Virus record (IMG/VR): IMGVR_UViG_2563366883_000010
Location: 1-12,178 of that record
Strand: one strand, 5' to 3'
Source: a virus
Lineage: Duplodnaviria > Heunggongvirae > Uroviricota > Caudoviricetes
Length of the DNA: 12,178 nucleotides
Shown: positions 3,120 to 7,958 of the stretch, piece after piece
How the letters are laid out: each line of letters opens with the position of its first letter
Position numbering within the stretch: position 1 is the first letter of the stretch
Made by a program: the position numbers and the translations under genes
Notes under the pieces: model-generated
Told to the model about the DNA's origin: nothing
The model's database searches: none
What the model saw: the letters and a program-made list of their open reading frames with translations, nothing else

Positions 3120-4277
3120 TTAATCGTCGTCCTGTGGCAGTTCCAGAATCTTGATCGCGTTCGAATCCACCACGCCACCGCCTAAATATTTTTGCGTGAA
3201 AATTTTGATGAATCCTGGTTCTGTCAGGTTGTCCGGTCTGGTGCGAACACCTGTTTCGTGATCAACGATGTAGTAACCGCGTTTGAAGTCACCCAGGGCA
3301 ATAACGTTATCAGGCATAAACTCCAGATATTCGACCGGAAGGCCCAGCAACGTATCAGGATCACCCGCCTGTAAACGGTCGCGCCAGATGTAATCACCGT
3401 TCGCGTTCTTCACCTTCTGGAGTTTTGCGGCCGTCGTGGAGTTAACCACCCAGACCGCGTTCTTGCGGTATTTTTTACGTAATGCAAATTTCAGATCGAT
3501 CAGCGGGTCCGCAGATGTCCAGGCAAGAGATTCGGAAGGCTTAATAACCTGCAACGTACCAAAATCACGTTCTTTGTCGTTCTTCTCTGCACGGGGTACG
3601 GATAAAAAGCCTTTTGCTTTTTTGTCACCGTCGCCCACAACCAGATCGCTTTCTTCGGTTTCCGTGAAGGTGTCGCCAATCTCACCCGTCAGCCATGAAA
3701 GGATGTCCACATCGGAAAAATCCACGATTTCCTGTGTGGTGCGCGGGTACGCATAGACCGGATACAGCTTAATGCTCACCTCGTTAATCTGCGGGGTGCT
3801 GGTCTGTTCGCGTGCCTTACCCTCTTCACCGTGGTTAACGGTCGCACCGCCAGCGGAAACAAGCTGCTTAAACTCGTTGCTGCTGATTTTCTTCACGGTA
3901 CAGATGCGGCGCATGGTGGACTCATCCGCCAGCATTCGCATGATTTCGGTGTTCAGTTCGGGGATAACGGTATAACCACCATCAGCGGGAACGCCTGTAC
4001 TCAATGCGCGGGTTTCACCTGTCAGAATGTAGTGACGTAGTTCGGCGGGGTCAGTGGTCTGGCTGTTTTTGCCTGGTTTACTGCGCTCTTCGTCAGCAAC
4101 GGCCTCAAGGCGGGAGATGTCTTTATCGAGGGATTCAGCTTTAGCGCGTAATTCGTCAAATTTTGCGCCCTCAGCATCGTTAAGGCTGCGGTTTTCTTTT
4201 TCCGCGTTCTCCAGTATGTCGCGCATCTGATTTTTAATGGCGGTTTTCTGCTGGCGTAATTCGATTATTCTCGGCAT
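3120..4277 (-). CDS. Major capsid protein, HK97 fold, with N-terminal coiled-coil scaffold-like domain
   Basis: 385 aa from ATG 4277 (MPRIIELRQQ...). The first ~90 aa are charged and helical (ELRAKAESLDKDISRLEAVADEE), like a delta domain. The rest has the usual HK97-type capsid composition. Confidence 0.9.
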   Translation of the reverse strand: MPRIIELRQQKTAIKNQMRDILENAEKENRSLNDAEGAKFDELRAKAESLDKDISRLEAVADEERSKPGKNSQTTDPAELRHYILTGETRALSTGVPADGGYTVIPELNTEIMRMLADESTMRRICTVKKISSNEFKQLVSAGGATVNHGEEGKAREQTSTPQINEVSIKLYPVYAYPRTTQEIVDFSDVDILSWLTGEIGDTFTETEESDLVVGDGDKKAKGFLSVPRAEKNDKERDFGTLQVIKPSESLAWTSADPLIDLKFALRKKYRKNAVWVVNSTTAAKLQKVKNANGDYIWRDRLQAGDPDTLLGLPVEYLEFMPDNVIALGDFKRGYYIVDHETGVRTRPDNLTEPGFIKIFTQKYLGGGVVDSNAIKILELPQDDD

Positions 4278-4367
4278 AAAAAAAGTCCTGAAGTTAAGTA
4301 AGGAACTCCAGGACGCGGCAAACACTCAACCGTTTTTCATAAGGAAATCAGCAATCGCACCGATCGT

Positions 4368-4415
4368 TTTCCCGCCTGGTAATGAATATTGGCGAGCACA
4401 TTAACAGGCGGGAAA
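4368..4415. repeat. Perfect 11-bp inverted repeat with a 26-bp spacer, in the leader of the head operon
   Basis: TTTCCCGCCTG (4368-4378) and CAGGCGGGAAA (4405-4415). The spacer holds a second nested pair TAATG/CATTA (4380-4384 / 4399-4403). Confidence 0.5.
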
Positions 4416-4491
4416 GTGGCCCCAGCGTCCTGGCACCACGGGCGAGAATACTCATGATTCAGTTCGGGTAAAATATGCCGATCCTGTCAGT

Positions 4492-4518
4492 GAACAACGT
4501 GGAACAACCACGAACAAA
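4492..4518 (-). promoter_or_regulatory. Phased direct repeats, 3 x GAACAA at exact 10-bp spacing (TTGTTC on the coding strand); candidate regulator-binding array
   Basis: GAACAA at 4492, 4502 and 4512. The reverse complement matches 22 of 25 positions with the array at 10869-10893. Confidence 0.4.
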
Positions 4519-4536
4519 TAATTTACAAAAAATGAC

Positions 4537-4560
4537 AAAAAGCCGGATTGCTCCGGCTGT
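4537..4560 (-). terminator. Rho-independent terminator (minus strand)
   Basis: Minus strand reads ACAGCCGGAGCAATCCGGCTTTTT: 7-bp stem AGCCGGA/TCCGGCT, 4-nt loop, then a T-run. Sits 9 nt after the stop of the 74-aa gene. 23 of 24 identical to the element at 4891-4914. Confidence 0.6.
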
Positions 4561-4568
4561 ATGCGTGC

Positions 4569-4793
4569 TCAGTCCCTGATCCCTTTCAGAAATTCTATCA
4601 ATGCATCTATCTGTTCAGGATTTACCGCCAGCATTTCACCGGACAGAGCACATCTCACAAAACCATGCTGATCCTTTTCAATCAGTGCGCCCGTCTCCAG
4701 GAATGCGCGGTAATCATTGATGCTCATCGTCTCCATGTTGTCAGCATGGTATTTATCACGCTGTTTTAATATCTCATCAAATTTCATCGGCAT
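4569..4793 (-). CDS. Hypothetical protein (74 aa), cargo gene
   Basis: ATG at 4793 with SD GAGGA 7 nt upstream; the ORF is bracketed by two near-identical terminators. No family recognised. Confidence 0.6.
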   Translation of the reverse strand: MPMKFDEILKQRDKYHADNMETMSINDYRAFLETGALIEKDQHGFVRCALSGEMLAVNPEQIDALIEFLKGIRD

Positions 4794-4890
4794 TGTTTTT
4801 TCCTCTGTTGTGTCTGTTTGTTTCAGATAGTAACTATGCCTGACCGTGACGAAAACCCGGTAATGCGCCATACCGTTTCAACTGGTGCAA

Positions 4891-4914
4891 AAAAAGCCGG
4901 ATTTCTCCGGCTGT
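4891..4914 (-). terminator. Rho-independent terminator (minus strand), twin of 4537-4560
   Basis: AAAAAGCCGGATTTCTCCGGCTGT; same stem with one loop substitution and a T-run on the minus strand. Sits 4 nt after the stop of the PerC-like gene. Confidence 0.6.
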
Positions 4915-4917
4915 TGA

Positions 4918-5190
4918 TTAGCTGTCTGGGTAATTACGCCATATTTCATCGCTTACACCATCTATACCCATTTCAGCATAAGTGCGATCTACTGCCTTTC
5001 TCAGGTCTCCGTAATTATCCGGCGGCTCCGGTGGCCTCTGTGCCTTTCTGGAACATTCCAGCCGTCGCATCGTAACCTGATGCCGTTCCTTGTCTGTCTC
5101 CACCAGCAGCATGACTTCACCCCATCGCGCCGCCGCCCTCCGGTAAAAGCCTTTCGCCTCGAGTTCTTCCGCTATGCGGTCATGTACCAT
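4918..5190 (-). CDS. PerC-family transcriptional regulator-like protein (90 aa)
   Basis: Start at ATG 5190 (MVHDRIAEELEAKGFYRRAAARWGEVM...) with a GGGGGTG SD directly after the SSB stop. The LE-KG-(F/W)-RRAA-RW signature is what I recall for PerC/Pch activators. The longer ORF to 5310 overlaps the SSB gene and is rejected. Confidence 0.55.
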   Translation of the reverse strand: MVHDRIAEELEAKGFYRRAAARWGEVMLLVETDKERHQVTMRRLECSRKAQRPPEPPDNYGDLRKAVDRTYAEMGIDGVSDEIWRNYPDS

Positions 5191-5200
5191 CGCCACCCCC

Positions 5201-5611
5201 TCAGAACGGAATACCGTCACCGTAAGGGTCATCGCCTCCCGCTGGTGGCTGATTACCCTGTGTGCCTGTGGTTTTGCGTCTGTTCCCGCCAGGACGTGCC
5301 GCACGGGCACTGATTACGCTGTCTGCAATAACCTGATAACCCTGCCGCGTTTCCCCGTTCTGTCCGGTCCACTGGCTGACCTGCATCGTGCCGGATACGC
5401 TGGCAACGTCGCCTTTTTGATGTTTAGCCAGGAAGTCGGCCTGCTTACCAAATGCGATGACCGATAGCCATAACGTCGCCTGTCCGTCCTGTGCCTGACT
5501 GCATGGCAGTGATACCGCCATACGCGCCAGCGTCATCGGTGTGCCCTTGCTGGTCTGTTTTACCTGCGGGTCGTCCACCAGCCGACCGTAAGCCGCTATC
5601 TGTGCTGTCAT
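5201..5611 (-). CDS. Single-stranded DNA-binding protein (SSB family)
   Basis: 136 aa; the OB-fold core (WLSVIAFGKQADFLAKHQKGDVASVSGTMQVSQWTGQNGETRQGYQV) is co-linear with E. coli SSB; Gly/Pro/Gln-rich linker and acidic tail ending DGIPF (compare SSB DDDIPF). ATGA overlap with the upstream ORF. Confidence 0.8.
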   Translation of the reverse strand: MTAQIAAYGRLVDDPQVKQTSKGTPMTLARMAVSLPCSQAQDGQATLWLSVIAFGKQADFLAKHQKGDVASVSGTMQVSQWTGQNGETRQGYQVIADSVISARAARPGGNRRKTTGTQGNQPPAGGDDPYGDGIPF

Positions 5612-5904: not shown

Positions 5905-6127
5905 CTGTTCACCTTTTGCAATTTTCCCTTTTTATTCATGATGTTAAGGGGTGAACAGTTTCACAAAAACTATTCACCAACTGTTCACCACTGTTCACCC
6001 TTAAAGCTCAATAAAGAATCAAAAAGGTGAACAGTGAATAGTTTGGTGAACAGTTCATAAATAACTGTTCACCCTATAATATACTGATATAAAAGACATT
6101 TATTGCAGGGTGAACAGTGGTGAACAG
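5905..6127. repeat. Iteron-type replication origin: nine copies of GGTGAACAG (both orientations) plus an AT-rich segment
   Basis: Full 9-mers at 5905, 5950, 5981, 5991, 6026, 6045, 6065, 6109 and 6119 (start positions), with partial copies at about 5972 and 6035; AT-rich stretch 6074-6104. Begins 14 nt after the replication-protein stop. Confidence 0.75.
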
Positions 6128-6140
6128 TTATTCCATAAGT

Positions 6141-7958
6141 TTAATTTTTTCCATCGTCATTTGTGACCGATGCACATGATGGCATCCAGTATTCTGAATC
6201 CTCTGTCAGGGTCACATTTGAACGCAAACCGTGCTTCGTTTTCCGTTTCATATACTCCCTGCCATATTCCGCCATTGCCCCCGGCATATCTTTACCGAAG
6301 CGCGTCAGTGTTACAGGTTTACCGAATCCGTGTGCCCTCATATATGCCAGATAGGCGTGATAAAGATACCTGCGCGGACTGAACGGAATAATTTCGGCAT
6401 TACCCACTAACAGACCATCACACATTACCGACGACATGAGATAGCCGCAGAAGTCCACCAGCGAATCGCCCTCGCGTTTTATCACCAGAGCTTCTTCTGA
6501 TTTCTGCTGCTCATACAGCAGGCGTTTAGCTTCGTCCTGGTCAGAAAAACGAGTAAGCAGGTGGCGAATCACAACCGCCAGCTCTCCTTCTATTTTTTCT
6601 GCCAGCATGGGGTCGCGTTCGTTTTCCGGTACAACCTCCGAAAAATTGAATATCACCCGACGACGTGAAATCCCCCCGCTGCGGTCACTGAATGACATGG
6701 CGTTATTGTTCACCGCCAACACTACCGCCTGAATGCGTGTTGAGTAGGGGGCTTTATGCTTCGGGTCGATTGCCACCTTGTCACCGCCTGTAATGGCCTT
6801 AATTCCTGCGCCATCACCAGCGTAACGGGTCATATCCGGCATGATAATCAGCGAAAAGCCAACCACTAACGCGCGTTCCCTGGCATCTTCCAGCGCCTTC
6901 ATGCTTGCCGATACCGTGTTGGCCTTACCCGCCAGCATGGTGCAAATCTCCGCCATCACGCTTTTACCACTTCCCCCTGGACCTGTTACCTCAATGAATA
7001 ACTGCCAGTCGTACCGGTTCGCCAGCACCATGAATAATGCAGCCAGTACGCGATCCGCCTTGCGGTCATTCTCAGCCACCGAACGGCGTAACCACTTCCA
7101 GAAATTCGGCGCATGTGTTGCCAGCGTTTCCCCCTCTGCTGGTGGGCTGAAAGGTAATTCACTGGCAATTAACAACCAGTCGTTTTTGTTATGCTCCCGA
7201 AAATTACCTGTTCTGGTATCAAATACCCCGTTACTGAATCCAATCAGGTTACGGGCTGTATTCCCCATTACAGGCAAACTTAACTTCATGGTATCGACCG
7301 CCGATTTAATGGCGTTCTGCGAATAGCTGATCTCCGCATCAATGAAAATCTGTGCCATAGCTCGCTGTAATTCTTTATCCTGTACTGGCTCCCATACAAC
7401 GCCGTTGTAATGGTGAACAGTGTCAGAGTCAGCATGAATCGCCAGTTCACCGCCATAATGTGCCAGGAGAACTTCGCCGCGTTGACTTGCTCCCATCTGG
7501 TTAAGCGCCAGTGATGAAGCGTTATCGTCTTTTACCCGCTCTTTTTTCTTTACAGGCAGTTCAACTACCTTTTTCTTTTCCGCCTGCTCTGCCCGTTCAC
7601 GTTCCAGATATTCGCGCCAGTTCTCCCGTTTCTGGCTGTGCATTCCTTCAGGGTAATAATCAGCATCCCTGACACCTGCCGCTGCCAGTTTCTGCCCGAT
7701 GGTATTAACAAGCCCCGAACGCAATAACCCCGCCTGATAGAGACGCACGCGATAGCGTCCGTCCGGTACGATTTGCAGGTTGTCCAGTTCGGCAAGTTGT
7801 TGCTCTCCAAGCCAGACAGGTGGCACGTTATCGCCAGCCAGTCGCCCGTCCTGTTCCTGCCACTGCTTCGCATGTGCCCACGCATCACTACCCGCAAAAA
7901 TGATGACTTCCGTCATTTTGTCACGTGGCTGGTGTTTTAAATTTGGCGCTTTTTTCAT
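6141..7958 (-). CDS. Replication initiation protein, P4-alpha / D5-family primase-helicase (SF3 NTPase)
   Basis: 605 aa from ATG 7958 (MKKAPNLK...). Walker A VTGPGGSGKSV, Walker-B-like LIIMPDMT, VVLAVNNN; D5_N-like segment NGVFDTRTGNFREH. The track start at 7973 is GTG; the ATG at 7958 overlaps the upstream stop as ATGA. Confidence 0.9.
   Translation of the reverse strand: MKKAPNLKHQPRDKMTEVIIFAGSDAWAHAKQWQEQDGRLAGDNVPPVWLGEQQLAELDNLQIVPDGRYRVRLYQAGLLRSGLVNTIGQKLAAAGVRDADYYPEGMHSQKRENWREYLERERAEQAEKKKVVELPVKKKERVKDDNASSLALNQMGASQRGEVLLAHYGGELAIHADSDTVHHYNGVVWEPVQDKELQRAMAQIFIDAEISYSQNAIKSAVDTMKLSLPVMGNTARNLIGFSNGVFDTRTGNFREHNKNDWLLIASELPFSPPAEGETLATHAPNFWKWLRRSVAENDRKADRVLAALFMVLANRYDWQLFIEVTGPGGSGKSVMAEICTMLAGKANTVSASMKALEDARERALVVGFSLIIMPDMTRYAGDGAGIKAITGGDKVAIDPKHKAPYSTRIQAVVLAVNNNAMSFSDRSGGISRRRVIFNFSEVVPENERDPMLAEKIEGELAVVIRHLLTRFSDQDEAKRLLYEQQKSEEALVIKREGDSLVDFCGYLMSSVMCDGLLVGNAEIIPFSPRRYLYHAYLAYMRAHGFGKPVTLTRFGKDMPGAMAEYGREYMKRKTKHGLRSNVTLTEDSEYWMPSCASVTNDDGKN

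Follow-up and report, generated by a model that had tools for sequence, protein, structure and literature searches.

The 12,178-nucleotide stretch of viral DNA analyzed here, referred to as the window, includes a 74-amino acids gene, named orf74, that probably represents an optional single-gene, moron-like unit, which homologous recombination would shuffle at a terminator joint common to the island family. We give this reading a probability of about 0.6. The evidence comes from the twin hairpins that flank the gene, from the presence or absence of the gene in related islands, and from the combinations of modules that are found on both sides of the hairpins.

The window is a capsid-forming PICI satellite and a mosaic relative of the EDL933 island. 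Read from right to left in plus-strand coordinates, it includes an integrase, an Ash-like/C4-RNA immunity region, a DUF4222 gene, a primase-helicase, iterons, an 81-amino acids gene, SSB, PerC, the cassette with orf74, a leader, and the capsid side, which consists of the HK97-type capsid, protease, portal, connector, and HNH genes downstream of the leader of approximately 260 nt (Table 1). Thus the gene content that characterizes capsid-forming PICIs, namely integrase, replication, capsid, protease, portal, connector, and HNH functions, was found, tail and lysis genes being absent, with the terminase being seen in the relatives L004 and L217, two complete tail-less islands that include terS and terL and are located between roxA and phoQ. 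Islands of E. coli O157:H7 and its relatives share 99% identity with the region, and the tail-less island that EDL933 harbors between roxA and phoQ includes an identical cassette. The mosaic nature of the window can be seen in the replication module, which has a D5-type primase of 610 amino acids as opposed to a DUF927 protein in EDL933, and in the 5' segment of the capsid gene (3900-4277), which is only 95% identical to the O157:H7 relatives L004 and L061.

Table 1. Location of the cassette, its joints, and the neighboring features in the window.
Feature	Coordinates	Strand	Characteristics
Integrase gene	10961-12178		
D5-type primase-helicase gene, 610 amino acids	6141-7973		
perC, PerC-family regulator gene, 90 amino acids	4918-5190	minus	PF06069, E 6.5e-45; last gene of the early/replication operon (81-amino acids gene, SSB, perC)
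Upstream joint terminator copy	4891-4914	minus	Hairpin 4895-4912, 7-bp stem, GAAA loop 4902-4905, U-run 4889-4894
Second, weaker terminator-like hairpin	4858-4875	minus	CGGUAUGGCGCAUUACCG + GGUUUUCG, 5 pairs; just downstream of the upstream joint
Cassette 5' region	4794-4857	minus	SD AGAGGA and candidate weak promoter; near-invariant in the alignment of 23 unique cassettes
orf74, 74 amino acids (MPMKFDEILKQ...KGIRD)	4569-4793	minus	Open reading frame; phrog_1957 match; pN/pS 0.155; intact in 53 of 54 loci
Downstream joint terminator copy	4537-4560	minus	Hairpin 4541-4558, GCAA loop 4548-4551, plus UUUUGUCAUUU; point at which the homology breaks with respect to other packaging modules
Leader of the capsid/packaging operon (La flank)	4278-4536	minus	Begins right after the downstream joint; context, outside the cassette

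Other regions of the island have characteristics of their own. Just downstream of the D5-type primase gene, GGTGAACAG iterons are clustered in both direct and inverted orientation (5928-6142) and presumably constitute the replication origin of the island; iterons of a similar kind are located ahead of the homologous small gene in islands of Klebsiella, Citrobacter, and Serratia. On the minus strand, an Rfam search identified two C4 antisense RNAs (8796-8883 and 9274-9361, 73-75 bits), an isrK-like RNA (9383-9459), and a c4-a1b1 target (8951-9000); this segment (8796-9459) has the look of an RNA immunity region of the P1/P7/P4 type duplicated in tandem, and it overlaps the Ash-like ORFs as well as the direct repeats D5/D13. 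The leader, as RNA, is strongly structured, with a minimum free energy of -93.1 kcal/mol (z -5.4), and its 25 unique variants are 93-100% identical. It includes a 17-bp hairpin formed by the inverted repeat 4368-4384/4399-4415 as well as a terminator-like hairpin (4285-4314) followed by U7. The latter element directly adjoins the capsid start codon, and the sole SD-like AGGA is located in the 3' arm of its hairpin. The leader may act as an attenuator or as a translational control of the packaging operon. A RefSeq pseudogene annotated as "trigger factor, frameshifted" spans the upstream terminator and the 3' end of perC (8555-8670 in L004 and 9274-9389 in L217, equivalent to approximately 4834-4949 in the window), and in other records a 42- or 100-amino acids ORF is called at the equivalent location; these calls look like annotation artefacts.

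The preliminary description of this DNA had pointed out twin 24-bp repeats with a hairpin and a T-run flanking the 74-amino acids gene, and the repeats were found as described. A repeat finder located the two copies, AAAAAGCCGGATTGCTCCGGCTGT at 4537-4560 and AAAAAGCCGGATTTCTCCGGCTGT at 4891-4914, which are 24 nt each, 354 nt apart, and identical at 23 of 24 positions (96%), and a pattern search showed that no other site in the window matches them with up to three mismatches and that matches occur in none of 200 dinucleotide-preserving shuffles. The orientation has to be specified, as the gene and both terminators are on the minus strand and the T-run is an A-run on the plus strand. The terminator scan of the minus strand identified AGCCGGAGAAATCCGGCT+TTTTTTTG at 4912-4895 and AGCCGGAGCAATCCGGCT+TTTTGTCATT at 4558-4541, with RNA folding energies of -13.2 (z -3.7) and -14.4 kcal/mol (z -2.9), respectively, and none of 200 shuffles folded as well. 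In the minus-strand RNA the upstream copy reads AGCCGGA-GAAA-UCCGGCU followed by U7 (U-run UUUUUUUG) and the downstream copy AGCCGGA-GCAA-UCCGGCU followed by UUUUGUCAUU. Both hairpins have a 7-bp stem with five G-C pairs, a GNRA loop, and a U-run directly 3' of the stem, which is the sequence organization of intrinsic (Rho-independent) terminators, and both are co-oriented with the gene, the upstream one being located 6 nt past the perC stop codon and the downstream one 10 nt past that of orf74. Both are therefore predicted terminators, and from their sequence we infer that they terminate transcription in vivo. The perC stop codon and the short spacer that follows it are part of the conserved joint. 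No RNA family was found in an Rfam search of nucleotides 4278 to 4914. The downstream hairpin (4541-4558) supports the proposal that the gene belongs to a discrete, self-terminated unit.

The 100 nt that separate the upstream joint from the ATG of orf74 hold the second weak hairpin, the pairing of which is kept through G-U pairs in the divergent alleles L005, L208, and L209 (C-G to U-G and G-C to G-U). The Shine-Dalgarno sequence attributed to the gene is present (AGAGGA, 4801-4806), 8 nt ahead of the ATG. As for the plausible weak promoter suggested earlier, the TACTAT -10 motif is indeed found at 4827-4832 on the minus strand, but even when paired with its best -35 (TTTTCG at a spacing of 17 nt) the motif reaches no more than 7/12, and the promoter scan gave no sigma-70 match of at least 9/12 upstream of orf74. 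The 60 nt before the ATG are near-invariant even in alleles with a coding part that differs by 7-9%, and it is plausible that they hold a weak or activator-dependent promoter.

The preliminary description had suggested comparing related islands at this exact junction, and the comparison bore out that the unit is present in some and absent from others: relatives with the same flanks (L001, L135, and others) miss one repeat and the gene and keep a single hairpin. A megablast search with nucleotides 4280-5320 against 5426 complete E. coli genomes matched 819 genomes, and the matches belong to four classes: full-length, with homology from exactly 4537 (such as hits H12-H26), with homology from 4890, and in two pieces that span approximately 688 nt rather than 1041. 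The cassette is present in 539 of the 5426 genomes at 592 places; counts here and below are inflated by the many near-identical O157 isolates included in the IMG/VR and RefSeq samples. In L001 the capsid-side flank of the window is joined to perC via a single hairpin, and the missing 354 nt amount to precisely one repeat and the gene; the same joining of perC to the capsid leader through one hairpin was found in L135, L150, L153-155, and others. L002 has the cassette with both hairpins and an unrelated packaging module downstream, and in L003 perC and the hairpin are followed by unrelated DNA. L134, with the cassette, and L135, without it, share the same perC allele, which is 98.5% identical to that of the window. 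The G+C content of the cassette is 0.43-0.45, that of perC and SSB is 0.57-0.61, and that of the capsid gene is 0.52-0.55. No clonal pair differing by the cassette alone was found, the flanks of the closest pair differing by 2-7%, and the loop-base pattern (GAAA upstream, GCAA downstream) does not separate insertion from deletion.

The hairpin is not confined to loci with the cassette. A scan of IMG/VR for the hairpin 21-mer with one free loop base yielded 119 loci. Among those of the island family, which are selected by the pattern, the gene upstream of the hairpin junction is that of PerC in 43, SSB in 27, the 74-amino acids protein in 17, and the 81-amino acids protein in 8. Across this family, at least four kinds of gene are found on the upstream side of the hairpin and at least six kinds of flank on its downstream side, and the hairpin joins at least three unrelated downstream modules. 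The early operon ends at the hairpin (T) as a nested series: 81-amino acids gene|T, 81-amino acids gene-SSB|T, 81-amino acids gene-SSB-PerC|T, and the latter extended as PerC|T|orf74|T. Roughly one in three of the loci selected by the pattern is an AT-rich phage contig unrelated to the islands (L025, L030, L052, L062, and others) in which the identical 21-nt hairpin AAAAGCCGGATT(N)CTCCGGCT is an apparent bidirectional terminator. The hairpin can therefore arise independently, and its identity alone is no proof of common descent.

Selection on the hairpin was avoided by sampling 80 loci through PerC protein similarity. In all 79 of them that have sequence after perC the hairpin is located 6-7 nt past the perC stop codon, the stem being intact in 73 and having a single mismatch in the other 6. 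The loop is GAAA in 42 of these loci, GCAA in 25, GUAA in 11, and GGAA in 1, so that only the N of GNRA varies; no covariation was seen in the stem, the variation being confined to the loop. The homologues of orf74 in other genera are accompanied by quite different terminators, and therefore function alone does not impose the identity of the hairpin seen within the E. coli family. In L005, from Shigella flexneri, and in L208-L210, all of which have a GCAA loop in both hairpins, the gene upstream of the cassette codes for a 53-amino acids fusion of an SSB N-terminus to a PerC-like C-terminus, which suggests an internal deletion in the early operon.

Of the PerC-anchored loci 73 are informative; 35 of these have the cassette (23 before the lambda-like flank Lb, 11 before the HK97 leader La, and 1 before another flank) and 38 do not (19 Lb, 16 La, and 3 Lc). 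All 38 loci without the cassette have one hairpin and 34 of the 35 with it have two. On the perC tree the state of the cassette changes at least six times, compared with approximately 24 for random labels, a Fitch count that is rough on a recombining gene, and identical perC alleles occur with and without the cassette. The identities of SSB, perC, cassette, leader, and capsid to those of the window vary independently of each other; for example, L205 has a perC that is 85.6% identical and a leader that is 100% identical, and in L184 the values are 92.7% for perC, 99.1% for the cassette, and 98.9% for the capsid. The correlation between the pairwise distances of orf74 and perC is 0.32.

As judged from its pattern of variation, orf74 is a real protein-coding gene under selection. 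The full-length protein is encoded in 53 of 54 loci, the C-terminus being altered in the remaining one, and the pooled pN/pS is 0.155 for 15 nucleotide alleles of orf74 and 0.255 for perC. Pooled synonymous diversity reaches 0.137 in orf74 and 0.121 in perC, a comparable depth, and therefore orf74 is not a recent arrival. Its product is acidic (pI 4.9) and matches phrog_1957, a PHROGs family of "unknown function", over its full length (residues 1-74, E 7e-42). Copies of the gene with more than 90% identity are confined to Escherichia and Shigella, and a peptide-pattern scan of genome contigs gave one Shigella locus only. An exhaustive HMMER search and a profile search showed that the family, which is found in satellites of Enterobacterales, consists of proteins of 76-106 amino acids with 35-49% identity from Klebsiella, Citrobacter, Serratia, Raoultella, Enterobacter, Hafnia, Pectobacterium, and others, and the profile of the family alignment A1 retrieved 161 homologue clusters. 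The conserved motifs in the alignment are Y, DHHGF, SGE, and EQxDxLIExL, and the family is consistently acidic, with a median pI of 4.95 and a net charge of -7. The AlphaFold model based on the alignment is confident (pLDDT 86.6) and consists of three helices, a three-stranded sheet, and a C-terminal helix; it was used in place of the single-sequence model, which was poor (pLDDT 57). The model had no significant match in PDB or BFVD, the family has no Pfam or NCBIfam model, PADLOC gave no match for the protein at E values up to 1, and tblastn against GenBank phages gave none. Nothing in these searches of PADLOC, Pfam, NCBIfam, and folds thus favors the anti-phage role that had been contemplated. 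A 100-amino acids reading of the ORF from the ATG at 4871 was ruled out, as the homologues align from the MPxx start and the Shine-Dalgarno sequence precedes the ATG at 4793. An origin of the cassette as a tandem duplicate of perC or of the 81-amino acids gene was also ruled out, there being no sequence similarity and a hhalign probability of 0.1%.

Members of the family in other islands occupy an equivalent place. The gene that comes next after the primase and the iterons is the homologue in islands of Klebsiella, Serratia, Citrobacter, Pectobacterium, and Hafnia and in a metagenomic island; it is located upstream of the capsid operon or of variable genes on the opposite strand, and there are no twin terminators. 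In four islands a member with 43% identity comes right behind SSB within the operon, with a 17-nt gap that has a Shine-Dalgarno sequence and with a different terminator following; in two of these cases, L274 and L294, what comes after that terminator is the same capsid leader as in the window. The preliminary description had named the finding of the gene between conserved flanks without a duplicated terminator as evidence against inserted cargo, and such loci were found in part, with a homologue in the same slot, either next to the same leader (L274 and L294) or directly after the origin (Klebsiella, Serratia, Citrobacter, Pectobacterium, and Hafnia). The family keeps the slot of last gene before the packaging leader, and the bracketing by two joints is peculiar to the E. 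coli allele behind perC. Of 79 islands sampled through their primase, 26 have a member of the family and 53 have none, and the family is thus recurrent but optional among related satellites. The view of the gene as accessory cargo agrees with this optional presence and with a G+C content lower than that of the flanks, but less well with the homologues that occupy the same slot elsewhere. The variable opposite-strand genes between the small gene and the capsid gene in the Klebsiella, Citrobacter, and Serratia islands (5299-6072 in L006, 5296-6607 in L011, and 5302-5529 in L009) had no PADLOC match and no significant Pfam match, and the stretch looks like an accessory hotspot of these satellites.

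These observations can be accommodated as follows. The cassette is located where the early/replication operon meets the capsid/packaging operon in a capsid-forming PICI of the EcCIEDL933 type. Both repeats are taken as copies of one GNRA-capped intrinsic terminator that acts as a conserved joint of this E. coli island family, is found at the same boundary throughout the family, and consists of a stop codon, a short spacer, AGCCGGA-GNAA-UCCGGCU, and a U-run, about 26-35 nt in all. The upstream copy would end the perC operon, and the downstream copy would end orf74 and insulate the capsid leader. Recombination between copies of the joint, present in one island or in co-resident or co-packaged islands, would add, remove, and re-assort the unit with precision, and recombination at the joints would also swap the modules on either side. 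Most likely, the twin arrangement would be a tandem of two alternative units of last gene plus joint, perC-T and orf74-T. The exact 354-nt indel, the breakpoints at the edges of the hairpin, and the free combination of flanks make recombination between joints a simpler account than duplication, and it is from these sequence comparisons that we infer homologous recombination as the mechanism. A length of 24-35 nt is little for RecA-dependent recombination, and this account has to assume either a recombinase from a phage or satellite or selection acting on rare events.

The route proposed in the preliminary description was that the unit was inserted by duplication of a pre-existing terminator. 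Stated in full, a moron, perhaps with an anti-phage role, would have been inserted once by illegitimate recombination that duplicated the perC terminator, and the islands without the cassette would correspond to the site in its ancestral, empty state. Sites without the cassette and with one hairpin do exist, the G+C content of the cassette is below that of its flanks, the orf74 allele, defined by copies with more than 90% identity, is confined to Escherichia and Shigella, and the gene family is optional among satellites, all of which fit this account. The duplication step, however, is contradicted by the hairpin being a family-wide joint that predates any cassette: it follows perC in 79 of 79 loci, it is also found after SSB and after the 81-amino acids gene, that is, after three different genes, and it precedes several unrelated modules. 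Furthermore, loci with and without the cassette are dispersed among the perC alleles and occur with either packaging module, at least six changes being needed, the depth of the synonymous diversity speaks against a recent acquisition, homologues without twin terminators occupy the same slot in other genera and in L274 and L294, and a defence role finds no defence-family match. We consider a single insertion unlikely. An ancestral gene that was repeatedly lost by deletion between the direct repeats, through slippage or intramolecular recombination and with no horizontal gain, would explain that the family has the same position in six genera (last before the packaging leader or first after the origin), that the deletions promoted by direct repeats are precise, and that the La-type loci without the cassette have a single hairpin mostly with the GCAA loop of the downstream copy. 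Loss as the only process is nevertheless rather unlikely, as cassettes that are 98.5-100% identical are found behind perC alleles that differ by 5-8% and before unrelated packaging modules, which requires transfer, and as the absence of the family from 53 of 79 primase-anchored islands indicates that it is not core.

Two further explanations give the hairpins a different meaning. Precise junctions at a palindromic element in many flank combinations could be expected if the hairpins were the sites of a site-specific recombinase and the unit an integron-like mobile gene cassette. Integron cassettes have an attC of 57-141 nt, an imperfect palindrome with conserved boxes, and occur in arrays with an adjacent IntI. 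The site found here is an 18-nt perfect hairpin with a U-run right after stop codons, which is not attC-like; only one kind of cargo was found between twin hairpins across the 119 pattern-selected and 80 perC-anchored loci, with no arrays; and the sole recombinase in the window is the integrase of the island itself, located at the far end, with no integron integrase. This explanation is very improbable. Equally hard to sustain is that the likeness of the hairpins reflects convergence on a generic strong terminator, a GNRA-capped GC stem with A/U runs, that has no special relation to the unit. The identical 21-mer in unrelated AT-rich phage contigs agrees with convergence, but within the island family the identity reaches into the spacer and the U-run, the hairpin is found at 79 of 79 perC loci while the homologues in other genera have quite different terminators, and the indel removes exactly one copy.

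The role of the 74-amino acids product is a matter of guesswork. Its acidic nature disfavors DNA binding, and its constant place beside the packaging leader leads us to guess a role at the early-to-late boundary or directed at the helper; as a tentative suggestion, it could be a small acidic protein-binding modulator of the early-to-late transition of the satellite or of its interaction with the helper, rather than a DNA binder. A more far-reaching view, in which the terminator joint is a selected exchange site that organizes the shuffling of modules among E. coli satellites and the acidic protein is a new factor for the early-to-late switch or the hold on the helper, seems quite unlikely at this point.

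The window and the EDL933 island agree with what 10.1101/2022.09.08.507074 describes for capsid-forming PICIs, of which EcCIEDL933 is the prototype; helper-phage-dependent induction and transfer are reported there for EcCIEDL933. The window has the same layout of integrase, primase, origin, capsid, protease, portal, connector, and HNH, and the EDL933 island has an identical cassette; the two differ in the replication module and in the 5' segment of the capsid gene. The passages of that report that a term search retrieves include none on the 74-amino acids gene or the terminators. Regulators of the PerC/Pch type are carried by E. coli prophages and, commonly, by PICIs (PMC11773190, PMC5931665), reports that establish no role of PerC in the cycle of the island itself. 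The window resembles these elements in having a PerC-family gene just upstream of the cassette, the cassette gene itself being unrelated to PerC.

The morons of lambdoid phages are units of promoter, gene, and terminator located between genes that are adjacent in related phages, and they were reportedly described by Hendrix and colleagues. The cassette is like them in that it consists of a single extra gene with its own terminator, located between operons that are adjacent in relatives, with a distinct G+C content, and optional. It is unlike them in that it is found in a phage satellite, its promoter is only a weak candidate, and the two copies of a family-wide joint terminator allow homologous gain and loss; in addition, members of its gene family turn up at the same slot in satellites of other genera, so that it is no random passenger. 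Susskind and Botstein are said to have proposed, in their modular theory of lambdoid phage evolution, conserved linkers at the junctions between modules, and boundary sequences have reportedly been found in phages of the HK620/P22 type. The joint shares with such linkers its short conserved sequence between interchangeable modules, the breakpoints at its edges, and the occurrence of all flank combinations, but differs in being a functional-looking intrinsic terminator of approximately 26-35 nt with a GNRA loop that comes after whichever gene of the early operon is last. The island family thus offers a testable example of the re-assortment of satellite genes, in which a terminator of approximately 30 nt that is common to the family is the seam for modules and for one optional gene. 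It also offers, as a candidate for genetic dissection, a well-conserved, uncharacterised family of small proteins at the replication/packaging boundary of capsid-forming PICIs, EcCIEDL933 included. Neither a novel kind of system nor a defence gene is revealed by these results; the kind of the unit and its joint is known from the morons and the conserved module linkers of lambdoid phages and is found here in a phage satellite.
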